Shown here: positions 6,401 through 42,177 of the stretch, one piece after another
How positions within the stretch are numbered: position 1 is the first letter of the stretch
How the letters are laid out: every line of letters begins with the position of its first letter
From: a virus
Strand: one strand, 5' to 3'
DNA: 42,338 nucleotides
IMG/VR virus record: IMGVR_UViG_3300045988_018117
Span: 1-42,338 of that record
The notes under the pieces: generated by a model
What the model saw: only the letters and a program-made list of their open reading frames with translations
The model's database searches: none
What the model was told of the DNA's origin: nothing
Made by a program: the position numbers and the translations under genes

Positions 6401-9400
6401 CGCACCTGATCGGAAATCATTCCGTCAATGATGTCGTTGGCAATCTCCTGAATGGCTGCATCACGGTAGCTGTCGAAGGGGTTTTCATAGATGGTGTCCA
6501 TGCTGTCCAGCACGTCACCTATTTGCAGCAGCATGTCCGCCTCGGTATACACGTCGCTGGGGAAATAGCCCTCGCCAAACATCTCCGCCAACTCGCCATA
6601 CACGGTATCCACAGACGTGCCATTGGACTTGTTCAGTTTCAGCGTTCCCATGTGGCTCTTTCGAAAATCGCCGTAGTTTGCCATGTCCCCGCCGAACTGG
6701 ATGGTCTGCCGCTTCAAATAGTCCCGAATTTCCAGCAGCTCCGCGCCGTACTCCGTCAGCTCCGTCGTGTTGTCCACGATGGCCTCCGCCACGGCCTTGG
6801 CGTGTGGCATCAAATCCTCCATCGTCACGTCCCGCTTCATCACAGCCTTGGCAAGCGCGTCCATCTCGCTTTGCACGTCCGCGTATTTCACATCGCTGCC
6901 GTACTCGCGGATGAGATTCTGCCCCAGCTTTTTCACGTCCCGCAGCACCACGGACGGTTCCTTGCTGATGCGCATTTCGCCCTTCAGCTCCTGCACCCGC
7001 TGTTTCAGCGCCTCATTCTGCTTGGCCAGCGCGTTTCGCTCCTTCTTGAGTTCCCGCGCCTCGCGCTCCACCTCCGCCGTATTCTTGAGCTGATACCGGA
7101 ACTTTTCAAGCTCCGATACATACGGTGTCGTTCCATTCTCAAAGTACGCCTTTATGTCGTTGATGACCTTGCTGCTGTGCGTCCCCTTCGGGTATTCCGT
7201 GCTGGACACGGTATTCCCGTTGGCGTCATCCAAATCCAGAATGACTTCGCCTCTGTTTTTGCTAATGAAGTCAGCCAGAGAATCAAACTGCGCCTTTGTG
7301 GGCATGACCGACAGGTTGATACCGCCGCTTTCCGGGCTGATACGGATATTCCCCTCGCCCATAAACTGTACCATCGCGCCGCTGTAATCGTCCCCGCCGT
7401 AATCAAGCCCCAGCGCGCCACGGATATTCCGATGATCTACGGTTCGGTAGCCGCCGGGGCCACCATCATGCCGTCCGGAGAAGTCCAGTTTCGTGCCGTC
7501 CGTGGTGATGTACCCGGTCTCGTTCCAGCTGTACGTCTTGCCGAAAAATTCCTTTGCGGATTTTACATGATCTTTTTTCTCCGCCTCCGAGTAAGCTTTC
7601 AGCGAAAACCGTATATCCGGGTCGCTGGTTGGGTTGGGATTGTCCACCCGTTTAATCTGCTCTGGAGAAAACGCAATGTAAACTGTATCAGGTGTCCCGT
7701 TGTCGTCCATGATCTCATCCGTTGACCTTACAATGATACCATCATGTCCGCCATCTTTTGCCCAACGCTTCAAATCCGAATGCCTTACGTCCGCCTGCCC
7801 AGCGGCGCTTCCCCAGCCGCTATCCTCAACAATGAGAGGATTTCGCAGATTCAAATACGCCTCCATTACATAACCACCGCCAAGTTTGCCGGATGCATTT
7901 CCAGCATACCCTTGCGCATCTTCCTTGTACGGAGTGAAATAAAATCCCAGATCACCACCTCGAAGCGGGTAATTTTGCTCGATTTTGTCTGGGTCAAATA
8001 CAGTAAATTCCGCGTCTGTTCCGTGATAGACAGTAAGAAGCCGCCCCTCCGCATCCCGCACCTTGCTGTCCTTGAAAAACTCCTGCTGCTGTTCAGAGAG
8101 CTTCCGCCCGGTGCTATCCGTGGATTTCAGTGAAAACTGCGGCTTGACATTCTCGCCATCGGTGAGTATACTGGTACCAGAAGCATTCCCCCGCTGAGCG
8201 CCGGAGTTTCCGGAAGAGCCGTTAATTTGGGGAGTGCTTCTTTCTTGCATTTCCCCGATATTGTAGACAATGCTCCCATCCTTACCCAGCGCAACGGAAA
8301 TGCGCGTTCGATAATACTTTCCGTCAAAATCCATGAAATATGCCGTTCGATAGTTCCAGCCGTCTTTTGCCATGTCACCGTGACGCCCACCAAAGTCAAG
8401 GACAGTCTTTCCTCCGCGCTCAGAAACCTTAATGAGTTCGTCGATGTGCGCAGCCGCATTTGCTTTACGTTCAAATGCTTTTTCATCCAGCGTTCGACCA
8501 TTGTTGTCGTAAATGCTACTCAGCTTCCCGGCAGATTTACTTGTCAGGAGGAGAACATCGCCGTCCTCGGCAATCAGGCGAACATCCTCGTGATTGCGGA
8601 TTTTGCCGTTGATATAGCTTTCCAGCTGTTCACTCCACGCCTTGGGATCGTTGCCAAATAACACTTGTCTGTCCGCCTGAACGTATTTCATGCCATTGGG
8701 GAACTGCTTGATCTGATACTTTGCACCGTCGCCCTCACCGGCGGCGGTTTTTGCTTTCTCCGCCTGCCGCTCCGCCGCGTCAAAGGCCACCTGCCATTGC
8801 TTGGCAATGTTTTCCAGCTCGGCAAAGTCCTTGCCGTATGCCTCCTGCGCCGCCATGTCGCGGTATTTGCCGGTGAACGCAGTTTTGACCTTGGCAAGAA
8901 ACTCCTTCAGGCTGTCCAGCAGCTTCTGCGCCGCCGTCCGGTTTTCCTTGGAGAACTTGGCAAACAGGTCTGCGTCGTCCAGCATATCACCGGCGAAGTC
9001 CGCCGCAAGCTCGTCCATCACCTCGTCACGCGTCAGCGTCACGCCCTCCTGCTCCGCCGTCTCCATGTACCGCTCCACGATCTCCGCCTCTGTGTCCGCG
9101 CCGTTTTCGCGCATCTTGTACTCCACCGCCGACTGCCGGAACTTCCGGTATTCAGCGGGGGACAAGTCCTGCATCCGGTGGGTGATCTCATGTGCGGTCA
9201 CGTTCAAAAGCGGATTGTAGCTGTCAGCGGCGATTTGGATGAGATTCTGCTCTTTGATGTACTGGCCGTTGGCTCTGCCGCCAAGCACCTGATCCACGAT
9301 CTCGATCCGGACGCCCAGCTTCTTGCCCCATGTGTTCAGCGTGGCGGCGGTGTCCTTCTTTGCTGTGATCAGATACCGACTATACTCGTTGTCCGCCAGA

Positions 9401-11115
9401 CCGGCACCCGCCGTGGTTGTCACGGACGCTACCTCCGCGTTCTCCCGTGCCACTTGCGCCCGTGCGTCCTCCAGCCCAGCATTGTACGCCGCGTACCGCT
9501 GCTCCGGCGTCAGCATCGCCGCGTACTTGCCCTTGGCCTTGTCCGCTTCGATGCCGTTCAGTCCCGCGTTGTACACGCTGGAAAATCCTGCATACAGGGA
9601 AGGTGCGTCCTCTGCCGTCCGGCTCATTTCCTGATACGCCTTTTGCCCGTTTTCCAAAAAGCCGCCTACGCGCTTCTCTGCGCGTTTCTGCACAGCAGGG
9701 GAGGGAGGTGTAACCCTCTGCGTTTCCTGCGTCACCTCGCGGCTTGCAAGCCCCGCGATGTCACGTTTTACCTGACTGATCGGCTTGTCCGTGTCCAGTT
9801 TCACGCCGGTGCGCTGCTCCAGCACCTCCACCGCCACCGGGTCACGGGCGATAGCCGCCGCCTGATTGCCGGTGATGGTCTCGCCCCGCGTCACAGCCTC
9901 CACCGCCTCCGCAGACTTTGCGTTCATCTCCGGCGCGGTGTTCTGCTGCACATCTCGGTTGTACTGCGCTTTTGCTGCGCCATACGCTACACGGTTGGCA
10001 AGGGTATTCACGCCCATTGTGCCGCCGGACAGCAATCCGCCGACGATAGCGCCTCCAGCAAACTCTTCGGCAGCGGTTCCCGGATCAAAAATCGCGTTTT
10101 CGTTTACGCCAAAATACGGATTATCGGCATCATATACCGCATTTTGCAGGGACCGGTCGATGATGCCCTGCAGCACCTCCTCCTTGCCTTCGTCCAGCAT
10201 GGTGTTCACCAGCGTCCGCCACGCCGCCTGGTTTGCCACCTTTCCTGGCAGGTTTTGGATACCGCCGCTGATCTCGATCTCCGACCCCAGCAGCGCGTTC
10301 CCGATGGCGTACAGCGCGGCCCGTTTATCATCTACGCCCTCCGTCTTTGCGTCGTTGTAGCTGTGAGAAAAGATCTGCGCCGCGCTGGAGAGATAGTTGG
10401 GGTCCTTGGCCCGTGCCGCCGCCACATTCTTCAGCGTCTGCACCAGCGCGGGGGAACTCTTGGCCGCCGTCTGCGTTGCCAATGTGCCAGCCTTTGCCGC
10501 CGCGCTGGTGCCGCCGGAGGCGAAGGCGATGGCCAGCGAGGGCAGCGCCTCCACCGCAGACGCCAACAGATTCTCCCCCTTCTCCGCATACTGTCCGCCC
10601 TTGGCGGTGTTTTCCGCGTACTTCTGCTGCAGCCCCTCCTGTTCGAGAGCGATATTCTCGTCCCATGCGTTGAAAAAACCGCGCTCGTTCATCGGTGCGA
10701 TATTTCCAAACAGCGCGTTCCAGCCCTTGGCCACCGTGCGCTCACCAAAGGCCAGCGGCGTGGTCACATCTCGTGCGATAGCCGAAAGACCCATGCCTCC
10801 CGCTTTCAGCAGGCCCTTTCCATAGTTGTACCCCTTGTTGGCCTGCTTGTCCGCACCATAATTCCCCGCGCCAAGGGCGGAAATATTGTAGTCGTTTTGC
10901 TTTTTGGAGCTGAAATATTCCTTGTTGGCCTGCATTGAAGCCTTGTCCGTATGCCATGCAACGCCGTCAGAGGAGCCTTTGCTCGTATCAACACCGACAT
11001 ATGTGGCCTTTGGGCCGCGCTTATCCTGCGCTGCAGTGGGGCCAAGCGTTCCGGTATATGTTACTTTTCGCTTTTTCCCGTTTCGTTCGGTATTCCCAAC
11101 GTAAGTTACCTTCAT
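3466..11115 (-). CDS. Giant (2549-aa) polyvalent, probably virion-packaged/ejected, multidomain protein
   Basis: Uninterrupted ORF with RBS TAGGAGG, and the last large gene of the late operon. It contains an HExxH motif, an H-Y-E ADP-ribosyltransferase-like module, further conserved-looking modules, coiled coils and a C-terminal region of about 900 aa. Confidence 0.9.
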   Translation of the reverse strand: MKVTYVGNTERNGKKRKVTYTGTLGPTAAQDKRGPKATYVGVDTSKGSSDGVAWHTDKASMQANKEYFSSKKQNDYNISALGAGNYGADKQANKGYNYGKGLLKAGGMGLSAIARDVTTPLAFGERTVAKGWNALFGNIAPMNERGFFNAWDENIALEQEGLQQKYAENTAKGGQYAEKGENLLASAVEALPSLAIAFASGGTSAAAKAGTLATQTAAKSSPALVQTLKNVAAARAKDPNYLSSAAQIFSHSYNDAKTEGVDDKRAALYAIGNALLGSEIEISGGIQNLPGKVANQAAWRTLVNTMLDEGKEEVLQGIIDRSLQNAVYDADNPYFGVNENAIFDPGTAAEEFAGGAIVGGLLSGGTMGVNTLANRVAYGAAKAQYNRDVQQNTAPEMNAKSAEAVEAVTRGETITGNQAAAIARDPVAVEVLEQRTGVKLDTDKPISQVKRDIAGLASREVTQETQRVTPPSPAVQKRAEKRVGGFLENGQKAYQEMSRTAEDAPSLYAGFSSVYNAGLNGIEADKAKGKYAAMLTPEQRYAAYNAGLEDARAQVARENAEVASVTTTAGAGLADNEYSRYLITAKKDTAATLNTWGKKLGVRIEIVDQVLGGRANGQYIKEQNLIQIAADSYNPLLNVTAHEITHRMQDLSPAEYRKFRQSAVEYKMRENGADTEAEIVERYMETAEQEGVTLTRDEVMDELAADFAGDMLDDADLFAKFSKENRTAAQKLLDSLKEFLAKVKTAFTGKYRDMAAQEAYGKDFAELENIAKQWQVAFDAAERQAEKAKTAAGEGDGAKYQIKQFPNGMKYVQADRQVLFGNDPKAWSEQLESYINGKIRNHEDVRLIAEDGDVLLLTSKSAGKLSSIYDNNGRTLDEKAFERKANAAAHIDELIKVSERGGKTVLDFGGRHGDMAKDGWNYRTAYFMDFDGKYYRTRISVALGKDGSIVYNIGEMQERSTPQINGSSGNSGAQRGNASGTSILTDGENVKPQFSLKSTDSTGRKLSEQQQEFFKDSKVRDAEGRLLTVYHGTDAEFTVFDPDKIEQNYPLRGGDLGFYFTPYKEDAQGYAGNASGKLGGGYVMEAYLNLRNPLIVEDSGWGSAAGQADVRHSDLKRWAKDGGHDGIIVRSTDEIMDDNGTPDTVYIAFSPEQIKRVDNPNPTSDPDIRFSLKAYSEAEKKDHVKSAKEFFGKTYSWNETGYITTDGTKLDFSGRHDGGPGGYRTVDHRNIRGALGLDYGGDDYSGAMVQFMGEGNIRISPESGGINLSVMPTKAQFDSLADFISKNRGEVILDLDDANGNTVSSTEYPKGTHSSKVINDIKAYFENGTTPYVSELEKFRYQLKNTAEVEREARELKKERNALAKQNEALKQRVQELKGEMRISKEPSVVLRDVKKLGQNLIREYGSDVKYADVQSEMDALAKAVMKRDVTMEDLMPHAKAVAEAIVDNTTELTEYGAELLEIRDYLKRQTIQFGGDMANYGDFRKSHMGTLKLNKSNGTSVDTVYGELAEMFGEGYFPSDVYTEADMLLQIGDVLDSMDTIYENPFDSYRDAAIQEIANDIIDGMISDQVRQKKTYADRRALEKQEAVGRVREMLSRERQKRRDDVNALRKKYNEKTKKGSEKRKATAMRARIARHTGAISRKLVNPTDKQHIPEKLRVAVASLLQNINLESAYSYDENGRLRKNADGDPTRRTLEADRLKQIYDDILDNEGNMVVDPALTESGGLLDSLSALGGKRIADMSVSELETVWNAIRAIETTLTTYDKTLSSAKYKSTSEWAERFAADSMGRKRRNRKISLDMADPYTFFSAYGDAGKQLYRTLRNAQDQQHWMLRDVQREAEKFLDKNVYKKRFDRHTFTTGRGVELTLTTDQIMNLYNLARRGEQAMHHLTVGGIVQPEIKRDGKLKEIPRGNDNILLTEDDIKAITSVLTPEQVKVANGLQKLASTKLAEWGNNASMQVYGYRKFKEEHYWPIKAAKDAVASSVEKDADNARSIKNMGSAKALTPNASNALDIGGAYDVFAQNASDMIKYATLLAPMEDINRLYNYRYRDSSGNLTGRNMQQVLSGVYGDAAQKYWRNLMRDMQNGMVKNSSDTTRSIERIVGNTKGAAVGSNWRVVIQQPTAFFRAAVILDPENMAKGIAKGVTDGNGWDKARNWAAIAGIKDSSGFDQGSRYTIAREVYGSSDSVMDKLSDWSSRAAANADAITWGRIWNACEWQVAADTKTEVGSDAYYRQVAELFTDVIDQTQVVDGIMQRTQIMRDSDALTRQATSFMGEPLKSLNILMRSYDAWRFETNMQKRSAALKQLKRSVGALLVTDLINSLAQSLVDALRDDDKEKKYGARFFAALTGVSGDEERFGELAKNVLLEGNLKGNITLVGRLPYAKDLISILQGYSVERMDADAIGDIVRATQTMYSSVTGEGKYTTAYACKQLLTAVSKIFGVSVANLGRDVWSLARTIASETGNVRLMFEMEKAIYRMDRSAGNRKRWCELLYLAQKENDTKTARMIYKEMLEHGYDEKDVRQGVEAIMKTEQKVKSVDDLKNRWRAP
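7576..8118 (-). other. ADP-ribosyltransferase-like module of the giant protein (about aa 1000-1180)
   Basis: LLTVYHGT (H1031), GFYFT (Y1059) and VMEAYLNLRNP (E1085) match the H-Y-E ART pattern seen in phage polyvalent proteins. Confidence 0.5.
9178..9192 (-). other. HEITH (HExxH) zincin-type metallopeptidase motif within the giant protein (aa 642-646)
   Basis: Translated directly: VTAHEITHRMQDLS. Confidence 0.5.
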
Positions 11116-19118: not shown

Positions 19119-20399
19119 TCAGTTCATCGCGCCGCTCTCAAAGGTGGAGGCGGATTCGATGCGCACCATGTACTGCTCCACCAGACGCTCCGCCACCTTG
19201 GTCAGCTTCCAGCCTGCGGTGGCACGCTGATCCAGCGGGTCAGCCGTACCGGCAGAGCCGCGCTGCTTGACGATGTGCTGCAAGCCGCCGCCCTCCAGCT
19301 CCGTCACGCCGTAGGCGTCTGCGCCGAGGATCAGGGTAGAGTACACGTCGCGGCCATTTGCGCCGCCCTCGCCGGGATACACCACCGTGCCGTCGGTCAC
19401 AGCGGCAGGTGCCGTTTTCGTAGTGATGGTAGCGGCACCGGCAGCACCTGCGGCAGCAGATTCCACCTCCAGAAGATCCTTGCCGATCAGAATGTCTCTG
19501 CCAGTCAGCGCCTTGGCCTGCTTGTCGGTGAGCTTTTCCTTGATGGTAATGACCTTCCCGGTCGCGCTCTTGGCAGTCAGGTTGCGGGCGCTTTCCTCGG
19601 CGCCGTCCTCGATCTTCAGGGGAGTGGCATGAAAGATCTTTGCCTCTGTGGTCTCCACAAAGCGCACACCCTCGATCTTGCCGATCTCGCCCTCGTAGAT
19701 GCCGTCGGGGTCGGAGTAGGTCTTCACATCCACCCACTTCTTGTCGCTCATCAGGTCATAGGCGGTGTCGGGATGGATGATACCGGCAAAGTAGCCGTTG
19801 ATCTTCTGGGCGTTCATGACCTTCAGGGCGCGTACAGCCTTGCGGATGTCGTCCACCGTCAGGTACTTGTTGTTCTCGGCGGTGCTGTCGCCGCCCACCA
19901 GCTCAGAGCGATCCTTCGCACCACCGGCGTACACCACGTTGGTGCCGCCAGCCAGCACCTCGCGGGTGATGGTGTCGGCGGTACGGCCTGCCTGAGATGC
20001 CAGAAGGCGGGTGGCCTGCACCAGGTTGTTGTCGATGGCCGTCAGCTCCAGAATATCGGACAGCTCGACGAAGCCACCGTACTGCTTGATGGTGGCGCGG
20101 ATCACGCCCATGCTAAGTTTCTGACCGGCGGGGGTCACACCTTCGGTCAGAGGCACCAGCGCCTTGGGCAGGCTGTCGTACTTTCTGAACTCGATGGTTT
20201 TGCCGCTGTTCTTGGGGATGGGGTGCTTCTGGCCAAACTGGTCATGGATCAACTCCGGCTCGGCAAGGTTGATGAGGCGCATAGAGTAATACACCTTCAT
20301 CTCGTCGCTCAGACCGGGATCCAGCGTGGTATTGGTGTATGCGTCAAACAGGTTCAGCACCACCGGCATCAGGTACAGGTCGTTGTAAATTGCATTCAT
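19119..20399 (-). CDS. Major capsid protein (HK97 fold, N4-gp56-like family)
   Basis: 426 aa with RBS GGAAAGGAG. Follows the scaffold gene. The sequence pattern (KNSGKTIEFRKY..., GVTP...) matches what I remember of N4-type capsid proteins. Confidence 0.8.
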   Translation of the reverse strand: MNAIYNDLYLMPVVLNLFDAYTNTTLDPGLSDEMKVYYSMRLINLAEPELIHDQFGQKHPIPKNSGKTIEFRKYDSLPKALVPLTEGVTPAGQKLSMGVIRATIKQYGGFVELSDILELTAIDNNLVQATRLLASQAGRTADTITREVLAGGTNVVYAGGAKDRSELVGGDSTAENNKYLTVDDIRKAVRALKVMNAQKINGYFAGIIHPDTAYDLMSDKKWVDVKTYSDPDGIYEGEIGKIEGVRFVETTEAKIFHATPLKIEDGAEESARNLTAKSATGKVITIKEKLTDKQAKALTGRDILIGKDLLEVESAAAGAAGAATITTKTAPAAVTDGTVVYPGEGGANGRDVYSTLILGADAYGVTELEGGGLQHIVKQRGSAGTADPLDQRATAGWKLTKVAERLVEQYMVRIESASTFESGAMN

Positions 20400-20438
20400 G
20401 TAATAGCTCCTTTCCGCATATCGCAGCGGAGCCGTAGG

Positions 20439-21392
20439 TCAAAAGGAAATGCGTTCGCCTCTTGCTACTCTCCGCTCGATCTCCTCAAAGTCCGCTCTCG
20501 TCAACTTCGAGGGATCCGTCTTTGTAACAAACGCGCTGTTGGAGCTGGTACCGTTCTCACTGGGACGATTGCCCTTGGCCCGGACGTTATCGGCCACCTT
20601 CTTCTCCGTGCTGGCGGCAGCGGCCTGTACCGCATTGCCCATTAGCTCGTCAAAGTGCAGCACCTTGTATGCGTGCTCCATCGGTGTTCCGGCTTTCAGC
20701 AGGTTCACAAATTCGTCGTTTTGCAGCTCCTGCACAAGGTCAAAGTTCTGGTACATGGGATTGCTCCTCATGGCCTCCGCCTCCATGTACCACTTCTCGC
20801 TCTGCGCCCGGATCTGCGCCTCCTGCTGCTGCATCTGCTGGCCGCGAAGCAGCTCGGCGTTTTCCCGCCGCAGACGGCGAAACTCCTTGTACTGCTCCTC
20901 GCTCATGCCCGCCTCCTCGGCGGCTTCGCTCCAGTAGGCGTGGTCGTTGTCCACGGCCTCCAGCAGACGCTTTGCGTCCCCGTCCGCGATGCCGTAACGC
21001 TCCATCAGCGTATCCAGCACCGGCTGGTAGGACTGCATCCGCTTCTCCGCCTCCCGCGCCTCCTTGAAACGCCGGTCGATCATCCGCTGTGTCTCCTGGG
21101 TGTACAGATCCTTGTACTCCCCATTGATCAGCTCCCGGAAAGCCTTTTTCTTGGCCTCCAGCGCGTCGGACGTGGTCTCCACATCCTTCACCTTATCCTC
21201 AGTCCCGGCGTCGGACTGTACTTCCGTCTGGCTCTCCGCCTGTTTGCCGTACTTGACGTTGGCCAGTGCGCCCGATTTGCTCTGGCGGGTGGTACCGGAG
21301 CTTGCCTGTGTCTCGCCCTGTGCGGTGGCAGCTGTCGCCCCATCGCCGCCCTCGCCGTCAAAGAGGCCGAGGGAGATTTTGTAAAGGTACAT
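20439..21392 (-). CDS. Scaffolding protein with a short Prp-type N-terminal leader
   Basis: Start moved to MYLYKISLGLFDGEGG (RBS AAAGGAGGA, 5-nt spacer). Highly charged, helical, E/K/Q-rich. Lies between the Prp and capsid genes. Confidence 0.75.
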   Translation of the reverse strand: MYLYKISLGLFDGEGGDGATAATAQGETQASSGTTRQSKSGALANVKYGKQAESQTEVQSDAGTEDKVKDVETTSDALEAKKKAFRELINGEYKDLYTQETQRMIDRRFKEAREAEKRMQSYQPVLDTLMERYGIADGDAKRLLEAVDNDHAYWSEAAEEAGMSEEQYKEFRRLRRENAELLRGQQMQQQEAQIRAQSEKWYMEAEAMRSNPMYQNFDLVQELQNDEFVNLLKAGTPMEHAYKVLHFDELMGNAVQAAAASTEKKVADNVRAKGNRPSENGTSSNSAFVTKTDPSKLTRADFEEIERRVARGERISF

Positions 21393-21562
21393 ATCTGTTC
21401 CTCCTTTGATTCGCGGGCATATCGCTCCCGTGCAGCGCCCCCTATCCACCATTGCGGCGGGCGGCGGATCTTCACCGCCGTAACACCGCGCAGGCAGGGA
21501 GGAAGTATCTATATCATAGAAAGGGGGCGCGGTCTCCCGCACCCCTAAAACGAAAAATATTT

Positions 21563-21850
21563 TTATTTTTTTTCGATTTTTACGGAGATCGCCTCCGGCT
21601 TGGCTTTTTCCAGCTGCAAAAAGCCAATTTTAAGCAGGTCATACAGCCACCTCCCGCCGTGCCAGCGCAGGTACGCATCCCCACTGTCCAGCCGTTCCAG
21701 CACCAGCTCCGCCTCCTGCGTGTTGTGCAGCCAGCCCGCCGCTGTGTACAAGAGACAGCTTACCGCCGCACACACGTCAGGGTATCCTGTGGCGTGTCCC
21801 TTGCACATCACGGAGCAGTTATCCCCGTGATGCAGTGTTACCTCCGTCAT
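21563..21850 (-). CDS. prp: Prp-family cysteine protease (ribosomal-processing protease homologue; head maturation)
   Basis: 95 aa. KGHATGYPDVCAAVSCLL matches the conserved His...Cys core (GHA...D.VCAAVS) of YsxB/Prp. ATGA overlap with the portal stop. Confidence 0.75.
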   Translation of the reverse strand: MTEVTLHHGDNCSVMCKGHATGYPDVCAAVSCLLYTAAGWLHNTQEAELVLERLDSGDAYLRWHGGRWLYDLLKIGFLQLEKAKPEAISVKIEKK

Positions 21851-23778
21851 AGGCTGGGCGTACTACGCTTTGCCAATGCCTGCCCGTAGCCGGTCATAGG
21901 CACCTGCGCCGCCATGATGCCGCTTGCAAGCTGGCTGGTGGCCTCCGCAGGTGCGCCGCCGCCAGTCTGCGCCGGTGCAGCGCCCGCGCTTTCCTGCGGC
22001 ATAATAGCGCCCGTCAGCATGGCAATCTGCGACTGCATCTGCATCAGCATATTCAATAGGGTCTGCCCCTGCATCACCTTTTCCCGCACGGTCTGGATGC
22101 CCTCGAAGTCCATCATCTCCAGCGCCGTCAGACTGGCCTGCGCGTTGTCAGGATTGAAAAAGCCCAGGGAGTACAGTTCCTTGGCCCGCTCGTTCTGCTC
22201 CATGCGGGAGAAAGGATTCTTTTTCTGCGCCTTGATTTTCAAGTCAAACACAGGCTTTCGGAACATCTCGTTGCCCATCGTGTCCAGCCCCGTCATCTGA
22301 TCCTGCAAACCAGTGTTGTCGAAGTCTACGAACTGATACTCGTTGCCCTCGCCGGTAATGCGAAAGCTGCGGCTCACATCGTAAAATTGCCGCATCAGCT
22401 CCACACACAGCAAGTTAATTTGTGTGTAGGCTCGATAGCTGGCGGCGATCATATCCCGGCTTGCCTTGTTTCCGGCCTCCTGCAAGGCGGCAATAGCCGC
22501 TGCCGCCGTCACGTTGGTGGTGCCGCCGGAGTTTACGTCCCGGTTTGCCGCCGTGTCCTTCATTTCCTCGATCTTCATCTGCGCCACCGTGACGTAGATA
22601 TCAGAAAGCGGCTGGGTGACAATCTCCTTGATCCGCTGGTCGCCGATCTCACCGTTGACGTGTACCAGCGGGCGATTCCAGTCAATAAACTCCTGTTCGT
22701 TGATGGCCGTACTTTCCGAAACAAAAAAACGCTTTTTGGTCGCCATCATCGCGTTTTCCAGAATGTTGGCGCTGAGCTTATCAATATAAAGCTGGGGGTC
22801 TTTGCAGATCGCCACATAGCCAAAGCCGATAGGCGTACCCTTCTCCGGGTACATGACGTCCAGCACCACCGGATACATCCCGTGGTCGTAAAAGCCACGC
22901 TCCCGATACTCCGGATCGTTTTCGCTGGCGTACAGCAGGGTGGAGCCAACAAACTTGACGTAGTGCAGCGCCGTCCTGCCGCTGGGTGTCTTGACCTTGT
23001 AATACCAGTCCACTACCACGCTCTTCTCGCTGGTGTCCACGGTGTCGTCATAGATGTACTCCTTCACGTCCACGACCTTGCCCTTCTGCTTGCCCTTGAG
23101 CTGAGGGTACTCGCTGTCCAGCAGGTCGTTGTCCACCAGATCCACGATAAACAGATTCCGGCTCTTCTGGATGTCCGTGATCCCCGGCTCCCAGAACAGG
23201 TTCAAAAGGTCGATGTCCCGAATCTCGATGTCGCCCAGCCCGTTGTCCTTCTTGCTGTCCCAGAACACGCCGTACACCGCCGTGCCGTGCTTCAGCTTTT
23301 CCCACCAGTTGTCGGAGTACACCTGCTCAAAATGGTTATACTCCTGCACCACCGGCAAAATCTGGCTCAGCGTCTTTGCGCTCTGCTCGTCGCTCTTTTC
23401 ACGGGGCAGCACCACCGGCTCCGGATAGTTGTCCATCGCGTCCGCGTGCTTATTCTGGATGGTGTTAAACAGCCACGCCGACGTAGGCTTGGGCTGGGGA
23501 GGGGAGGAGAGGACTTCCTTGCCGCTCTTGTCCACCAGCTTGGCCTTGCTCTGCCCGATGCCCTCCCAGTGCCGCAGCTCCCACCACAGCTCGTCGTTGA
23601 CCACCCGGCTCTCCAGATTGCCCTTGCCGTTTTTGTACCGCGTCAGCAGGTCGATCCCGCGCTCCACGTCCTTTTCTGTGATGGTGGGCGTGTCGTCCGT
23701 CCGCTCCAGCAGCATCGCCGCCATCTCCGGCGGCATACCGTCTTCCGGCACAATGCCGGGGATGCCGTATCTCTCCAT
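21847..23778 (-). CDS. Portal protein
   Basis: 643 aa, immediately downstream of TerL. RBS AAGGGGGAAAAGGA. Size and position are typical for a portal. Confidence 0.75.
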   Translation of the reverse strand: MERYGIPGIVPEDGMPPEMAAMLLERTDDTPTITEKDVERGIDLLTRYKNGKGNLESRVVNDELWWELRHWEGIGQSKAKLVDKSGKEVLSSPPQPKPTSAWLFNTIQNKHADAMDNYPEPVVLPREKSDEQSAKTLSQILPVVQEYNHFEQVYSDNWWEKLKHGTAVYGVFWDSKKDNGLGDIEIRDIDLLNLFWEPGITDIQKSRNLFIVDLVDNDLLDSEYPQLKGKQKGKVVDVKEYIYDDTVDTSEKSVVVDWYYKVKTPSGRTALHYVKFVGSTLLYASENDPEYRERGFYDHGMYPVVLDVMYPEKGTPIGFGYVAICKDPQLYIDKLSANILENAMMATKKRFFVSESTAINEQEFIDWNRPLVHVNGEIGDQRIKEIVTQPLSDIYVTVAQMKIEEMKDTAANRDVNSGGTTNVTAAAAIAALQEAGNKASRDMIAASYRAYTQINLLCVELMRQFYDVSRSFRITGEGNEYQFVDFDNTGLQDQMTGLDTMGNEMFRKPVFDLKIKAQKKNPFSRMEQNERAKELYSLGFFNPDNAQASLTALEMMDFEGIQTVREKVMQGQTLLNMLMQMQSQIAMLTGAIMPQESAGAAPAQTGGGAPAEATSQLASGIMAAQVPMTGYGQALAKRSTPSL

Positions 23779-23791
23779 ATCCTTTTCCCCC

Positions 23792-25234
23792 TTAATAGGT
23801 CTGATAAAATGCGTACCGGCTGGGCCTGTACTCGTCCTCTGTGTCCAGCGGCGAATAGGGACGCTCCACGATGTGTCCCATGTCCCTTGGCCCGATAGGG
23901 TTTTTCATACAGACGTACCGCAGCTGGTCGTAGATGTGATCCTCGCCGTCCGTGTCGATGTCCTCCACGTCTGTCTGGTCATAGACCAGGTTCGGAACCG
24001 TCCGTATGAAGTTCTTGCAGGTGTTGAACACATACAGCATCGGCACGCCGTCTGCGTCGAACGCCAGCCGGTGGTGAATCTGCATCTTGCCGTTGATCCG
24101 TGCGTGGTCGCCTTTTTCAAAGTAGACACGCTCACGCTCCATCAGAGCACCCACGCTCTCCGTGCCGTCGCTCTGCCAGATCGCCGGGTCGCCCACGCGG
24201 TGTATGTCCCGCCCCCGCAGGTTTGGGTCGTCCGCCTCGATGCGCCGTATCTCCTGCGCTACCTTGGTCGGCTCCCACATCACGCCACGGTTGGGCGTCC
24301 CGTTGCAGCCGTAAAACTCCCGGATATGGTACATCCGCCTGTTTCTGTCTACCGCGTACCACCCCACGGAAAAGGGACGGGAGTAGCCCCAGTCCAGCCC
24401 GCACCAGATCACCCAGTCCTCCGGTATCCGAAACGGCTCGATGACGTGGGTCTGCTTCCTGTCCAGATAGTGCTCCCGGTCGTTTTTCCACTCCGTGAAC
24501 ACCTGCCCCTCGAAGCTGTCCCAGTTGCCGTACAGCAGGGCGTTACGCTCCGCCTCCGGCATACTGGCCAGCCGCTGCACATATAACGGATCATTCTCCA
24601 TCAGGATCTTGTTGTCAAACACCGAGGACGGCACGAATATCCGCTGCTGCTGCCCCGTGTGCTTTTTCCCGTCCGGCGTATACCACACCGCCTCCTCTGT
24701 GATGGGCTGCATCGGCGGTGCCGCCGTGATAAACCGCTCCTTGACCCATCCATGCCCGATGTTGCCGGGGTTGGCGGTGGAGCGCATATAGACCCGTGTC
24801 CCCGCCCCGTTGGGACGATTACGGGATTTCAGGTAGTCGTACTCCTCCTGAGTAAAATGCGTCAGCTCATCAAAAGCGATAAAGTCATACGCCTGCCCCT
24901 GATACTGTATCTTGTCCTGCGGCCTGTTCATACTCCCGAACACGATTTGCGCACCGGAGGGAAACCGCCATGTGTGGTTGCTGCCGTTGTACCGCGCCTT
25001 TGGATACGCACGGGGGTAGTAGTTCAGCGTCTTGTCGATCAGCTCCCGCAGCTGAGGGAATGTCTTGCGCAGGATCAGCGCCTTGTACCACGGTATATGC
25101 ACCTGCCGCAGCGCTTCGATGACCAGCGCGTCGCTCTTGCCGCCGCCCGCCGCCCCACCATACAGGGCTTCATATTCCGGCCTTGCCATAAATACGGCCT
25201 GCCGCTCCTGCGGTTTCCACACGATCTCAGGCAT
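23792..25234 (-). CDS. terL: Terminase large subunit
   Basis: Walker A GGAAGGGKS and Walker B YDFIAFDELTHF, plus a C-terminal nuclease-like half. Overlaps the TerS end. Confidence 0.9.
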   Translation of the reverse strand: MPEIVWKPQERQAVFMARPEYEALYGGAAGGGKSDALVIEALRQVHIPWYKALILRKTFPQLRELIDKTLNYYPRAYPKARYNGSNHTWRFPSGAQIVFGSMNRPQDKIQYQGQAYDFIAFDELTHFTQEEYDYLKSRNRPNGAGTRVYMRSTANPGNIGHGWVKERFITAAPPMQPITEEAVWYTPDGKKHTGQQQRIFVPSSVFDNKILMENDPLYVQRLASMPEAERNALLYGNWDSFEGQVFTEWKNDREHYLDRKQTHVIEPFRIPEDWVIWCGLDWGYSRPFSVGWYAVDRNRRMYHIREFYGCNGTPNRGVMWEPTKVAQEIRRIEADDPNLRGRDIHRVGDPAIWQSDGTESVGALMERERVYFEKGDHARINGKMQIHHRLAFDADGVPMLYVFNTCKNFIRTVPNLVYDQTDVEDIDTDGEDHIYDQLRYVCMKNPIGPRDMGHIVERPYSPLDTEDEYRPSRYAFYQTY

Positions 25235-29354: not shown

Positions 29355-30836
29355 TCAAAAAATATCCCAGTCGCCTTTCTCACCTGACTTCTCATCGCCG
29401 AAATGCTTTTTTGTCACGGCAATAGGGAATTGCTCAATTTCAGAACTCCACCGGCAGCACTCTGCTCCGTGTATTCTCGCCCAGCAGACGTTAAAGCCCG
29501 AAATGCCGTCGAACAAACTCCCCAGCGTCGCGCCCTCCGGCAAATACCGCGCCATACGCCGCAGCATCCAGTCCCAGAAGGGCAGGGCGATGGAGTTGCC
29601 CAGCGCCTTGTACTTCGGGCTGTCCGCGTCCTTGTGTTTCTTGCCCTTCTCATCCGTCCAGTCGCCAATGTCCACCCATCCGTCCGGGTATCCCTGCAAG
29701 CGGGTACATTCCAACGGTGTCAATCTGCGCACGACCATGTTTGTGATGGCAAGGTCTGTGCTGTCCTTAAAGTCGCGTTGTTTGCAGCTGCTTGCAACAT
29801 TGGCATCACGATAATCTCCAAACCCGTTCATCTGATATGTAAGCGGCACTTGGTTTCCACCTGTTCTCATTCGCGCTTGCAATGCCGGTACCTTCTCTCC
29901 GCACTCGCGGATGACATCACAGGCGTGTGTCATGTCCAGTGCCACCACCGGAGCCACCACAGCTGGTTTATTCCCGCCGCACTCAGCGTTCAGTGTAGGG
30001 GACAGTTCCTCTTGATAGCCGATGCTCCTCGCCTGTTCACTGTTGCCCAGCTTAAACCCAGCGCACACTACTGGCTGGTTGTTCCCGCTCATATCCGCCG
30101 CAGCGGTCAGCGTAGGTGCTCTGTCGTCTGTGCGGATCTCTGCACCGCCCTGCTGCGTCGCCATGCAGATCACTCCGCATGATGCTTGCCCCCTGCCGCT
30201 GCCAGCCGAAATGCACATTGCCTTTTCTTTGCTTGTAATCGGGTCTTGCGTCAAGTGGACCGAGATTGTGCAATCAGCACCCGCTCCAAAATCTCCGGCA
30301 GTTTCTTCCCCCGCCGCGCCGCTCTTCTCAAGATGCCCTGACACGCTTTCGCGGTCAAATTGTATTTCGGATGCGGTGTCTCCTCCAAAATCTGCGACAA
30401 CCGAGATACGACGACGGCGTTGGGGCACTCCCCAGTGTTGCGCGTCGTGAGTTCGCCACACCACGCTCCATCGTCCTCCCATTTCATCGTGGTACCCTCC
30501 CCAGGTAGGCCAGCCCTTTTCAGGCACTTCAATACCGGGGGCTTCCGGCTCGACGATTTTGATGATCTCTTCGAGCACGGCTGCGAAGTCTTTTCCTTTG
30601 TTGCTGCTAAAGGCTCCGACCACGTTTTCCCACACGAGATACCGAGGTCTAACCATGTCACCTGTCCGTCCATTCCTTTTGTCCGCCTCCCTCATTTCTT
30701 TTACGATGCGTACCTGCTCCATAAACAGGCCGCTTCGCGCTCCCGCCAAACCGGCGCGTTTCCCGGCGATGGATAGATCCTGTCTAACAAGGTGAACCAC
30801 CTGTAATACACCAAACGGGTTCAATCTCTGCCCCAT
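29355..30836 (-). CDS. DNA (cytosine-5) methyltransferase homologue, circularly permuted (motifs V-X then I-II) and lacking the catalytic Cys in this frame
   Basis: Motifs in ORF order: QDLSIAGKRAGLAGARSGLF (aa 19-38), ENV (69-71), QRRRR (139-143), RLQGYPDGW (379-387), GNS (413-415), then LFDGISGF (441-448) and SEIE (465-468). Confidence 0.8.
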   Translation of the reverse strand: MGQRLNPFGVLQVVHLVRQDLSIAGKRAGLAGARSGLFMEQVRIVKEMREADKRNGRTGDMVRPRYLVWENVVGAFSSNKGKDFAAVLEEIIKIVEPEAPGIEVPEKGWPTWGGYHDEMGGRWSVVWRTHDAQHWGVPQRRRRISVVADFGGDTASEIQFDRESVSGHLEKSGAAGEETAGDFGAGADCTISVHLTQDPITSKEKAMCISAGSGRGQASCGVICMATQQGGAEIRTDDRAPTLTAAADMSGNNQPVVCAGFKLGNSEQARSIGYQEELSPTLNAECGGNKPAVVAPVVALDMTHACDVIRECGEKVPALQARMRTGGNQVPLTYQMNGFGDYRDANVASSCKQRDFKDSTDLAITNMVVRRLTPLECTRLQGYPDGWVDIGDWTDEKGKKHKDADSPKYKALGNSIALPFWDWMLRRMARYLPEGATLGSLFDGISGFNVCWARIHGAECCRWSSEIEQFPIAVTKKHFGDEKSGEKGDWDIF

Positions 30837-30867
30837 TTATTTTCGTAATATCGCCTAAATGTTTCAC
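30784..30867 (-). pseudogene. 27-codon fragment encoding the missing pre-motif-IV segment and catalytic Pro-Cys (…GDITKINGAEIEPVWCITGGSPC), ending in TAG, in a different frame from the main MTase ORF
   Basis: My own translation: GTG AAA CAT TTA GGC GAT ATT ACG AAA ... GGT GGT TCA CCT TGT TAG, with RBS GGAGGTGA upstream. The main ORF continues as AGA CAG GAT CTA TCC (RQDLS) one nt further on. Confidence 0.7.
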
Positions 30868-30879
30868 CTAAATCACCTC

Positions 30880-31155
30880 CTAATCTCCAAACACCACGCC
30901 GCACTCGTCCTTCAGCACGTCCTTGATGTGCTTCCGCTTGATGCGGCCTTCGTTGATCTCCTCCGCCAGTTTTTCCAGGCACTCGTACAGATACGCGATG
31001 CTGTGGGTGTCCCGGCTGTCCGTCGTCTCCTCTTGGACGTGCCAGCCGCATTTGTCCATCAGCACCATCGCCACCATGTCCATGTTCTCCCGTGTGCCTT
31101 GCAGCTTGCCACGCATAAAGATGCGGTCGTCCCTGCTCAAATGCTGTTTGCCCAT
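30880..31155 (-). CDS. Hypothetical protein (91 aa)
   Basis: ORF between the two methyltransferase genes, with RBS GGGGGAA. Confidence 0.65.
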   Translation of the reverse strand: MGKQHLSRDDRIFMRGKLQGTRENMDMVAMVLMDKCGWHVQEETTDSRDTHSIAYLYECLEKLAEEINEGRIKRKHIKDVLKDECGVVFGD

Positions 31156-31158
31156 ACT

Positions 31159-31950
31159 TCAATTCCCCCACAGTGATACTTGGTTTTCGTCCGGCAGTAC
31201 AAGCATTTGCTCCTGCGCCTTCTGGCAAAAGTCCCGGCTAATCTCAAAGCCGTAGCCACGCCGTCCCGTTTCCATACAAGCACGCAGCGTAGACCCGCTT
31301 CCGGCGCATGGGTCAATGACCACATCTCCGGGGTCTGTGAATATGCCAATTAGCCGTTTCAGCAGCACAACAGGCTTTTGCGTGGGATGAATCTTTGGAA
31401 TGTCTTTCCCGTCGCGCCCCCACTCCTGCCAGTTGAAAACCATTCTTTTTTCTCCGTACATATCCGTGTTGCGGAACTTTGGCAGTTTGTCTCGGTACAA
31501 CACCACGGCAAACTCTGTCGCGCCGACAATACGCATATTCGCCTTTAGAACCTGCGCGGAATAATTTTTGATGAAAAACAGAGGATAGGACTTCATAAAA
31601 CCGTACCGCTTGCCATAGTCGATGACCGTCTGCATCTGCTCAAACGCGCAAAAGACAATCATAGCCGGTGCCTCGCCTGTTGCTTTCGGTTCTTTTTTCA
31701 AAAGGCGGGAGCAAAAGTGCATATACTCCGCGATTTTGAAATTCCCGTCTGAGTTGAAAAAAGACTTCTTGGCAAGGCGGCTTTCCCCGTTGGCGTTATC
31801 TCCGTCTTTGTACCACATAGGATTGCTGGCGTAAGCATTTGATCCGATATTGTACGGTATGTCCGCAATGACAAGCTGTGCCTTGGGAATGTTGTACTTC
31901 TTGAAGTTTTGGAAATTATCGTTGAATAACTGAACTTGCTGTTTACCCAT
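31159..31950 (-). CDS. DNA methyltransferase, N6-adenine/N4-cytosine type (beta class, N6_N4_Mtase family)
   Basis: Motif IV DIPY (VIADIPYNIG) precedes motif I VIDPCAGSGST. 263 aa. Confidence 0.85.
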   Translation of the reverse strand: MGKQQVQLFNDNFQNFKKYNIPKAQLVIADIPYNIGSNAYASNPMWYKDGDNANGESRLAKKSFFNSDGNFKIAEYMHFCSRLLKKEPKATGEAPAMIVFCAFEQMQTVIDYGKRYGFMKSYPLFFIKNYSAQVLKANMRIVGATEFAVVLYRDKLPKFRNTDMYGEKRMVFNWQEWGRDGKDIPKIHPTQKPVVLLKRLIGIFTDPGDVVIDPCAGSGSTLRACMETGRRGYGFEISRDFCQKAQEQMLVLPDENQVSLWGN

Positions 31951-41091: not shown

Positions 41092-42177
41092 ATGTCTACT
41101 TGTATAAAATGCGGCGTCCAACTGGTACCGGATGCCTTATATTGCCATATCTGCGGGAAAAAGCAGGTCACGGCCTCCCGCAAGGCGCTGAAACGCCCCA
41201 ATGGGTCAGGCACGGTGTATAAGCTGGGTGGGCGGCGGTCGCGGCCTTGGGTCGCCGCAAAAGACGGCGTGTATATCGGGTACTACGAGCGGAAGACGGA
41301 CGCGCTTGCTGCACTGGATCGGCTGGCAGGCCGTCCGCTGGAGGAAAAGTTCAATATGACCTTTTCCGAGGTGTTCACCGAATGGAAAGCCGAACACTAT
41401 CGGGAGATAGGGGAGAAGGGCGTGGAATCCTATGACAGAGCCTACGCTGTATGTGCGCCGCTGCACAACAAGAAATTTCGTGACCTGCGCACAAAGGACT
41501 TTCAAGCCATCATCGACAGCAACATGGCAAAGTCCAACTCCACGCTGTCTAAATACAAGCAGCTCATGACCCAGATGGCCCGCTGGGCCGTCCGTGAGGA
41601 GATTGCCACAACTGACTTTGCCAAATACGTCAAACTGCCCCAGCAGGTAAAAAAAGAAAAAGCCATCTTTACAGATGACGAAATCGCGCTATTGGAAAAA
41701 GACGGCTCCGACGCCGCCAAGATCGCCCTTATGATGATTTACACCGGTATGCGCATAGGCGAATTGTTCTCCCTTCCGCTGAAAGACTACCATGAATCGT
41801 ATGTGATCGGCGGCGAAAAGACAAAGGCCGGCAGAGACCGCGTTATTCCCATCCGACCGGAGGGCAGGAAGTATTTTGCATACTTCGCCTCCCGCGCCAC
41901 CGGCGACCTGCTTCTGTCCGGCTACGATGGGCAGCGCATCCCCGCCAATTACCGCAAGCGTGACTTCTATCCGTTGCTGGAAAAGCTCGGTATCCCAAAG
42001 CACACGCCCCACGCCACGCGCCACACCTTCGCAACATGGGCGAGAAATGCAGGCATCCAGCAGGAGATTTTGCAGAAGATCATCGGTCACGCAAGCTTCT
42101 CCACCACGGCGGATATTTACATCCATGCAGACGCGGAAAAGCTCATCTCCGCCGTTGAATCTGCAAGTAATTTGTAA
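41092..42177 (+). CDS. int: Tyrosine recombinase (phage integrase) with N-terminal zinc ribbon
   Basis: CIKCG...CHICG at the N-terminus. The C-terminal catalytic region has HATRHTFATW...GHASFSTTADIYIH (R, HxxR, Y). Adjacent to attR. Confidence 0.9.
   Translation: MSTCIKCGVQLVPDALYCHICGKKQVTASRKALKRPNGSGTVYKLGGRRSRPWVAAKDGVYIGYYERKTDALAALDRLAGRPLEEKFNMTFSEVFTEWKAEHYREIGEKGVESYDRAYAVCAPLHNKKFRDLRTKDFQAIIDSNMAKSNSTLSKYKQLMTQMARWAVREEIATTDFAKYVKLPQQVKKEKAIFTDDEIALLEKDGSDAAKIALMMIYTGMRIGELFSLPLKDYHESYVIGGEKTKAGRDRVIPIRPEGRKYFAYFASRATGDLLLSGYDGQRIPANYRKRDFYPLLEKLGIPKHTPHATRHTFATWARNAGIQQEILQKIIGHASFSTTADIYIHADAEKLISAVESASNL

Follow-up and report, generated by a model that had tools for sequence, protein, structure and literature searches.

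The locus described here raises the question of how a complete cytosine-5 DNA methyltransferase (C5-MTase) could be made from a phage gene whose catalytic cysteine lies in one reading frame and the rest of the enzyme, from the very next residue onward, in another. It is found on the minus strand of a 42,338-nt stretch of viral DNA (IMG/VR record IMGVR_UViG_3300045988_018117), referred to below as the window, and all coordinates are those of the window. The annotated open reading frame (ORF) of 493 aa (29355..30836, minus strand) matches Pfam PF00145 (E 2.1e-22, 80 bits against a cut-off of 22) and PHROG 116, 'DNA methyltransferase' (E 6e-54), and the catalytic Pro-Cys is absent from it. The best joint explanation, in which we place an overall confidence of about 0.62, is a C5-MTase gene that is circularly permuted in the arrangement called Type B and is expressed by +1 recoding at a UAG stop codon directly after the codon for the catalytic cysteine. 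Homologous protein clusters are labelled P#### and homologous DNA loci L###.

A permuted methyltransferase gene in two frames

The gene is preceded by a ribosome-binding site (RBS), AGGAGGTGAT, and by a TAG that closes frame 0 directly 5' of the start codon (30868..30885, minus strand). Behind this RBS, a GTG at 30867 opens KHLGDITKINGAEIEPVWCITGGSPC, the beginning of a frame 0 leader of 27 codons (30787..30867, minus strand) that comprises the start codon, motif III (GDI) and, as far as the catalytic Pro-Cys, the strand of motif IV, VKHLGDITKINGAEIEPVWCITGGSPC. At the 3' end of the leader, the Cys codon (TGT, 30789-30787) is followed by TAG (30786-30784) and a single A (30783), and then by the CAG codon for Gln, which starts at 30782. 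The TAG-A (30783..30786, minus strand) is a 4-nt insertion, an in-frame stop codon plus one base, that falls exactly between the catalytic Cys and Gln, and is the proposed +1 recoding site: the uninterrupted locus L002 reads ...CCG TGT CAG GAT..., while the window and L001 read ...CCT TGT TAG A/C CAG GAT... It had not been reported in the initial annotation of this DNA. From CAG 30782 the body of the gene continues in frame +1 for 475 codons and a stop (29355..30782, minus strand), reading QDLSIAGKR..., and carries the Gln of PCQ, the catalytic loop, motif VI (ENV at 30632), motif VIII (QRRRR at 30422), a linker, a long and variable target-recognition region (TRD), motif IX (RRLTPLEC at 29729), motif X (GNSIA at 29600) and lastly motifs I and II. 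The relocated module for binding S-adenosylmethionine (SAM), which holds motifs I and II and a short tail (29358..29534, minus strand), is fused in frame after motif X (...RRMARYLPEG-ATLGSLFDGISGF; junction ...RRMARYLPEG-ATLGSLFDG). Within it, motif I (LFDGISGF) occupies 29516-29493, motif II (SEIEQF) 29444-29427, and the stop codon follows at 29357-29355.

Motifs IV (PCQ), VI, VIII, I and X are all present, with Pro-Cys in frame 0 and everything from Gln onward in +1, so that a complete motif IV needs recoding. The first 18 residues of the 493-aa ORF (MGQRLNPFGVLQVVHLVR) are the motif III-IV DNA read out of frame, and the PC of motif IV that the initial annotation placed in this ORF is found upstream in frame 0, outside it. 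The same annotation described a separate 5' segment with an RBS and GTG of its own; both signals are present, but the 27-codon segment is the true start of the same gene and not a detached leftover, and the residue left blank in its motif, EPV.CITGG, is Trp. Read in this way, the locus would be one gene that encodes a phage DNA (cytosine-5) methyltransferase, its enzyme activity being predicted from the motifs.

The circular permutation itself is near certain. When the window protein is compared with P0386, a homologue of canonical motif order, the alignment falls into two segments: motifs IV to X (residues 19-432) pair with residues 72-501 of P0386, and motifs I-II (residues 438-479) with its residues 3-42 (57% identity, E 3e-8). 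This bears out the original description of a permuted C5-MTase with motif X fused to I-II, including the homology of its C-terminal module to motifs I-II. The motif order in the window is III-IV-VI-VIII-TRD-IX-X-I-II. In an alignment made with P0005, which is 96% identical to the window protein, the N-terminus aligns from M.HhaI residue 59, where GDITQV is motif III, and the leader covers residues 59-81; the break therefore lies between motifs II and III, and not between III and IV as had been annotated. An N-terminus between motifs II and III, a C-terminus after II and the fusion of X to I are the features of a Type B permutant (PMC5944983). The window gene does not have the Type H order exemplified by M.BssHII, and the claim that its breakpoint is unlike those of M.BssHII and DRM was correct.

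The canonical P0386 reads ...IAVTTKRFPN-MEHLGDITK..., with an internal Met exactly where the permuted proteins begin, and the permuted proteins end just after the ...HFxxE that precedes this Met in the canonical form. Four other clusters (P0246, P0269, P0322 and P0377) run in the order (TRD part)-IX-X-I-II-III-IV-...-VIII; they share the X-to-I junction, and their ..HFPxM[KEQ]HLGD.. join is unbroken. The architecture, the Met of P0386 and the shared X-to-I junction fit an origin by tandem duplication, in-frame fusion and trimming, much as the initial annotation had supposed. The family would then be the natural counterpart of a duplication-and-trimming route known from laboratory evolution, in which permutants of M.HaeIII have their start between motifs II and IV, according to Peisajovich et al. 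2006 (cited in PMC5944983). The four clusters may stand for intermediate stages, or for another topology that arose from the same tandem duplication.

An ordinary methyltransferase fold should be formed by the permuted chain, with only its ends relocated. Structure prediction had been proposed as a check at the outset, and an AlphaFold model of P0005 built with 82 diverse homologues gave a predicted local distance difference test score (pLDDT) of about 87-95 at residues 1-25, 45-170 and 378-489, the TRD (171-377) not being part of the model. The relocated C-terminal module was modelled as strand-helix-strand, with a pLDDT of about 90. The best matches of the model in the PDB, by Foldseek, were all C5-MTases, namely M.HhaI, M.MpeI, M.HaeIII, DNMT1 and Dnmt2, with a probability of 1.0 for the first four. 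When only 53 close homologues were supplied, the mean pLDDT was 28.

The permuted order occurs in all of the 120 nearest protein clusters and in the 80 IMG/VR loci recovered, and is carried also by two isolated phages of Faecalibacterium, FP_Toutatis (NC_047915) and Lelie (PP479942). Because of this recurrence, an assembly error, which the initial annotation had named as a possible source of the gene order, is excluded. Prophage copies were found in Clostridia and Oscillospiraceae metagenome-assembled genomes. Among the best 150 clusters at 50% identity in a library of 1.84 billion representatives, the order IV-VI-VIII-IX-X-I was found in 79, and the others are mostly partial sequences, together with four that are H-like and one that is canonical. 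Other proteins that end in the motif I-II module, for which a search had been suggested, are well represented, as 51 full-length proteins among these best 150 clusters have M.H.GD at the start and finish a short way past motif II. A REBASE survey by Slaska-Kiss et al. 2018 (PMC5944983) listed 27 natural permuted C5-MTases, all of them broken in the variable region (Type H) and none of Type B, although, among engineered permutants of M.MpeI and M.SssI, those of Type B had the highest activity and equalled the wild type (PMC5944983). The absence of natural examples puzzled these authors, who proposed a handicap in SAM affinity. A literature search, REBASE itself aside, found no report of natural Type B permutants. 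Type B, thought to be absent from nature, accounts for the majority of the best 150 clusters at 50% identity; natural enzymes of this type are abundant in phages of gut Clostridia, and they supply natural sequences with which the SAM-affinity idea can be tested.

The stop codon at the catalytic cysteine

A scan for the DNA pattern TAG[A/C/T] between Cys and Gln, here called TAG-N, detected it in at least 118 IMG/VR contigs, where most contigs stem from one large human-gut data set. Among the 82 loci recovered by protein search, 37 have TAGA or TAGC, and 97 of the 120 nearest clusters begin with the tell-tale MGQRLNPF.. or a truncation of it. The TAG-N alleles have at least 28 distinct leaders, some less than 50% identical to each other (e.g. 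VKHYGDVTKIHGNEVEPVDCVIGGSPC and MVINFGDVCKIKGSCVPLVDVITGGSPC), and in all 28 the homologous position still holds a start codon, downstream of a strong Shine-Dalgarno (SD) sequence. This start is almost always GTG, and is preceded in nearly all TAG-N alleles by GGAGGTGATTTAG or GGGGGTGATTTAG. Scans that tolerate synonymous variants recovered more TAG-N alleles, from other environments, in which the flanking codons vary (CCC/CCG, TGC, TCG and GGC/GGA), so that the insertion is not tied to one haplotype. The idea that TAG-N is a single hitch-hiking haplotype is weakened by these variants, less firmly so for the gut alleles. At the fourth base, A is much commoner than C and C is commoner than T, while G was never seen. 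Variants with a changed first base of TAG gave no match in IMG/VR, and those with a changed second base gave none in the metagenome set, apart from one unrelated chance match. Precise revertants of the TAG-N leader haplotype were likewise not found in IMG/VR, the query GGTGGTTCACCTTGTCAGGA returning five matches, all to unrelated canonical methyltransferases.

Three variants at the 5' end of the gene may be recorded here. In the uninterrupted loci L016, L023, L051, L052, L056, L061, L066, L069, L077 and L082, the start position, upstream of ..KHLGD, is occupied by ATA behind a good SD sequence (..aggaggtgacgcgccATAaagcac..), which suggests a weak, non-canonical start in these alleles. In L084 (L084:2904-5243(+)), the methylase frame lacks a stop codon behind motif II and continues into the following gene (MKAVLISIRPEWCAKIASGEKKIEVRKTRP...). 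The TAG-N allele of L216 (L216:6180-7445(+)) has a Cys-rich insertion resembling a zinc ribbon (MSKACPVCGWKAVGNAEETVCPECGHELQY) in the catalytic loop, between AGKRSG and TRSGLFMEQ.

Purifying selection acts on both sides of TAG-N. Variation in the leaders of TAG-N alleles is concentrated at the third positions of frame 0 codons, the entropy by codon position being 13.1/9.6/30.7, against 11.7/9.0/32.5 in uninterrupted alleles. The ratio of non-synonymous to synonymous substitution (dN/dS) of the leader is 0.164 in TAG-N and 0.161 in uninterrupted alleles, and that of the IX-X-I-II region is 0.147 and 0.153, respectively. In TAG-N alleles it falls to 0.015 over the first 30 codons that follow CAG; dS is about 1 or more. 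In samples chosen by nothing but their DNA pattern at motif IV, the downstream gene is a single ORF in 37 of 65 TAG-N alleles (57%) and in 39 of 71 uninterrupted alleles (55%); these equal shares show that the TAG-N alleles are not decaying, and together with the similar dN/dS values they led us to reject the view that they are pseudogenes. There is, then, an in-frame stop followed by an ORF that continues in +1, an arrangement conserved in diverged homologues in which both frames are under selection at the protein level.

Since leader and body are both selected as parts of one enzyme, ribosomes would have to pass from frame 0 to +1 at Cys-UAG, and a programmed +1 frameshift is the probable bridge between them. 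In the mechanism proposed, translation would start at GTG 30867, read 27 codons to the catalytic Cys and meet UAG-A, at which point a fraction of the ribosomes would move +1 and resume at CAG (Gln). The out-of-frame AGA (or AGC/AGT) would be decoded while UAG waits for release factor 1 (RF1), with no re-pairing of the P-site tRNA, and the product would read ...GGSPC-R/S-QDLS...; in tryptic terms, the Arg form would give ...INGAEIEPVWCITGGSPCR and then QDLSIAGK. The fourth base of a stop codon affects the strength of termination, and the avoidance of G fits a need for a weak termination context. A G-rich GGNGG upstream may help the shift. Ribosomes that do not shift would release a harmless 27-residue peptide. 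As the permutation places the catalytic Cys at codon 27, only this 27-mer would be lost with each failed shift, and the site would throttle or switch the output of methylase, a formal counterpart to the early stop codon of prfB. We infer this mechanism, its efficiency and the identity of the extra residue from the sequence. Reassignment of TAG was considered and set aside, as the long ORFs of the window are intact under code 11 and several of them end in TAG; furthermore, reading TAG as a sense codon would not restore the frame. A search with ARAGORN found no tRNA, suppressor or otherwise, in the window.

Several observations weigh against a frameshift. The P-site codon UGU/UGC (GUU/GCU in +1) cannot re-pair, so this is not a classical slippery site, and the SD-like GGUGG stands 7 nt from the shift codon, compared with 3 nt in prfB. 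The site thus lacks both P-site re-pairing of the prfB type and an SD element about 3 nt upstream, and any frameshifting here would have to do without re-pairing. Among 27 diverged TAG-N alleles, RNAalifold detected no conserved RNA structure downstream, the only element being a mini-hairpin of 4 bp (GGUG/CACC) upstream. Catalysis might suffer from the additional residue, which would be Arg (Ser in TAGC/TAGT alleles) and would separate the catalytic Cys from the near-invariant Gln. In 45 of 48 contexts, a body-frame GTG is present six codons 5' of CAG, from which re-initiation would be possible. With one gut data set dominant, the contig counts are not counts of independent lineages. The gut alleles share an identical patch of 15-28 nt around TAG-N on very different leaders, and TAG-N and uninterrupted states are interspersed on the protein tree, with 13 changes; the patch and the interspersed states also fit the recombinational spread of a short cassette. 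Finally, the evidence for recoding is all drawn from sequence.

The alternative that survives best treats TAG-A as a loss-of-function insertion. Null alleles would be frequent because a loss of methylation can at times be of benefit, e.g. against methylation-dependent restriction, and recombination with functional alleles would keep the flanking regions intact. The interspersed states and the shared patch would be expected under this explanation too; in addition, near-identical proteins can differ only in their 5' cassette, and frame-breaking variants are common in the gene family, including changes in poly-G length and chimeras between the methylase frame and a nested frame described below. 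Null alleles should not, however, equal uninterrupted alleles in the dN/dS of leader and body, as TAG-N alleles do at dS above 1, and no excess of broken bodies was seen. Nor is it easily reconciled with a TAG-N kept across lineages that differ at flanking synonymous sites, with a T and A of TAG that were never seen to vary beside a fourth base that varies but is never G, with an RBS and start codon kept in all 28 distinct leaders, or with the failure to find revertants. We regard a null allele as unlikely, at perhaps one chance in eight.

A little less probable again is that translation terminates at UAG, freeing the 27-mer, and restarts at the body-frame GTG, 13 nt upstream (MVHLVRQDLS...), the two pieces then assembling non-covalently. 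That GTG is created by a GGT-GGT codon choice typical of TAG-N alleles, and re-initiation predicts, just as frameshifting does, that leader, stop codon and body are conserved. Fragment complementation is tolerated by C5-MTases, and M.AquI and M.EcoHK31I are natural two-chain enzymes (PMC3404938, PMC2836561). A cut right after the catalytic Cys would, on the other hand, leave the nucleophile on the free C-terminus of a 27-mer. We know of no split C5-MTase that is cut at this place. Moreover, L084, L213 and L216 are without a body-frame start codon (none upstream of CAG in L084 and L216). L210, L218 and L220 lack the GTG, and their body-frame starts are at least 11 codons upstream (TTG in L210 and L218; TTG, ATG or GTG in L220). 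Where the GTG does occur, the residues after it (VHLVR / AHPVS / ...) are not conserved as protein.

It is more doubtful still that the annotated 493-aa ORF, starting at Met 30836, is the real product, as a Cys-less, catalytically dead methylase-like protein that binds DNA and AdoMet (SAM) and serves another role, e.g. as a regulator or in site protection. Gene callers do annotate this ORF in 95 of the 120 nearest clusters, and alleles of the window type have the in-frame ATG. No RBS precedes that ATG, however, and it is missing in L008, where the body-frame ATG is lost and six frame-0 synonymous changes are present, in leaders labelled type B, which have a body-frame stop six codons 5' of CAG, in L084 and in many others; the upstream region also evolves as a frame-0 protein and not in the frame of the ORF. 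An artefact of assembly or sequencing, i.e. a mis-joined tandem copy or an indel error yielding TAGA, has nothing but the unusual look of the locus in its favour and can be dismissed, as the same order and insertion are present in hundreds of contigs, drawn from JGI, ENA, Logan and GenBank assemblies of different studies, the order is present in two isolated and fully sequenced phages, and a 4-nt non-repeat insertion is atypical of a sequencing error.

A nested frame, poly-G tracts and the phage context

A second ORF of 140 codons (30251..30673, minus strand) is nested in the +1 frame of the body, over motifs VI-VIII and the linker. In all 82 loci its frame opens at one and the same offset; the open stretch of the third frame is only about 42 codons long. 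The nested ORF is matched by 481 database clusters, mostly stand-alone calls of 143-170 aa, and no match to it was found in Pfam, PHROG or PDB sequences. The conserved C-terminal part reads ..SRLSQILE..P..KY.L..KAC.GILRRA.RRGK.LP..L. Over motifs VII-VIII, upstream of the linker, the main frame dominates conservation; over the linker, mean identity is 0.748 in the nested frame against 0.396 in the methylase frame, and the entropy by nested-frame codon position (0.64/0.44/1.08) has the pattern of coding sequence, the frame reading C.GILRRAERRGK.LP..L. This conservation and entropy indicate that at least the last 45 or so nested codons are selected as protein, and the ORF probably specifies a small partner polypeptide, to judge from these patterns. 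Support was sought in vain for a likeness of the nested ORF to the part that follows motif VIII in Dcm-type enzymes, which is a lead only.

Relatives with a certain TRD module carry a poly-G tract (5-9 G, ...GCATCAGGGGGGGCTGTGACGG...) at the junction of linker and TRD, which sets either the methylase frame or the nested frame into the TRD. Such junctions occur in L001 (L001:3045-4739(-)), L107, L111, L113, L115, L119, L128, L130, L134, L144, L147, L156, L160 and L197, and, among loci with an intact PCQ, in L235, L239, L241 and others. In about 17% of relatives, the nested ORF is fused to TRD-IX-X-I-II (12 of 65 TAG-N and 12 of 71 uninterrupted alleles), and the N-terminal half then stops at a TGA just after the poly-G tract. 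These fused alleles may be a natural split Type B enzyme, [III-VIII] + [nested part-TRD-IX-X-I-II], or a phase-variable switch. Many database entries are chimeras in which the methylase frame passes into the nested frame at various junctions. The two isolated phages, both with an intact PCQ, differ in a tract located after motif VI (locus position about 1821), with 9 G in FP_Toutatis (L231) and 14 G in Lelie (L232). The Toutatis methylase is annotated as two pieces (gp14 and gp15), the N-terminal part running into nested-frame sequence, and that of Lelie as a 5'-truncated hypothetical protein. Inteins are present directly before the catalytic Cys (GGSP|C...HN|CQ) in P0283, P0367 and P0377, 3 nt from the TAG-N site of other alleles, and after ENV, inside motif VI, in P0243, P0299, P0313, P0345 and P0369. 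The window copy contains no intein, and no run beyond G5 or A6, and so does not itself have a repeat tract of the phase-variable kind.

The window represents a temperate tailed phage with a GC content of 57%, with genes for portal, large terminase and capsid proteins (19119..25234), a Gp157-like protein and a tyrosine integrase (41092..42177). Two genes upstream of the C5-MTase is a second methylase, of the N6/N4 type (PF01555, E 9e-27; 31159..31950, minus strand). The two methylases are separated by an ORF of 91 aa that has no family match (30880..31155, minus strand), the stop codon of which lies inside the RBS of the C5-MTase gene. A single ORF of 2549 aa is found at 3466..11115 (minus strand), among the structural genes.

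Significance and comparison with known systems

We see even odds that these loci represent a large family of gut-phage C5-MTases in which Type B is dominant, a second polypeptide is overprinted, and a previously undescribed signal, Cys(UGY)-UAG-H, operates at the catalytic Cys, with full-length enzyme arising solely from a +1 shift, or from the reading of four bases, at a stop codon that has no slippery codon in the P site. If the site is indeed one of programmed +1 shifting, it would be a new case of recoding in bacteria or phages without a re-pairing codon, placed at the catalytic residue of an enzyme and conserved widely enough for the signal to be defined by comparison; methylase output would then be tied to RF1 activity or to the translational state of the cell. 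A literature search found no report of frameshifting in a DNA methyltransferase gene. There is also a consequence for annotation. Most current gene calls in this family start at a spurious Met and lack the catalytic Cys, or recognise the nested ORF only, and phage methylome predictions made from them will be wrong; in L084, for example, the public gene caller missed the methylase and annotated just the nested ORF, because the body frame has no start codon.

The closest parallel to the proposed shift is prfB, where a +1 shift takes place at CUU-UGA-C (PMC5009743). Both genes have an early in-frame stop (codon 26 in prfB, codon 28 here), need a +1 shift for the full product and carry a G-rich, SD-like element upstream, and in both the yield would be set by the speed of reading at the stop codon. 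They differ in that the stop here is UAG, read by RF1, and not UGA, and in that the mechanism proposed for the methylase is deduced. Because the product here is a methylase and no release factor, an autoregulatory loop is not evident. Phase-variable methyltransferases, with homopolymer or short-repeat tracts, are known from Helicobacter, Neisseria and Haemophilus, and the poly-G tracts of 5-14 G that set the reading frame in relatives of the window gene resemble these. TAG-N is not a repeat, and cannot be switched by slippage.

In plant methyltransferases of the DRM2 type, motifs VI-X precede I-V, the break being between V and VI, and these eukaryotic enzymes belong to an unrelated lineage. 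They resemble the phage enzyme in that a rearranged C5-MTase motif order regenerates the normal fold. The Type H enzymes M.BssHII, M.Alw26I, M2.Eco31I, M.Esp3I and M2.BsaI are likewise natural and have motif X before motif I, and a few relatives of the window gene (P0246, P0269, P0322 and P0377) also run IX-X-I-...-VIII; an H-like order is present in only 4 of the best 150 relatives. Unlike in Type H, the chain ends of the window protein fall between motifs II and III, a position that does not leave its two structural domains whole.

Natural two-chain C5-MTases, M.AquI among them, are cut near the boundary of motif VIII and the TRD (PMC3404938). In M.EcoHK31I, the coding sequence of the beta chain lies wholly inside the gene for the alpha chain, in another frame (PMC2836561), and the nested ORF resembles it as an overprinted second polypeptide, lying inside a methyltransferase gene, in another frame and under selection of its own. 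The beta chain of M.EcoHK31I carries motif IX, whereas here motif IX (RRLTPLEC) is in the main frame and the nested ORF specifies another conserved segment.

[quoted passage not shown] An engineered split of cp62M.MpeI was still able to complement (PMC5944983), and the same two-chain layout is natural in the roughly 17% of relatives with fused alleles. Those constructs are artificial, while the phage family is natural, large and diverse, and adds to the permutation a putative recoding site, a nested ORF, poly-G tracts and inteins. With candidate recoding, overprinting, poly-G switches, split forms and inteins gathered in one anti-restriction gene, the locus is a good model for how phages tune DNA modification.

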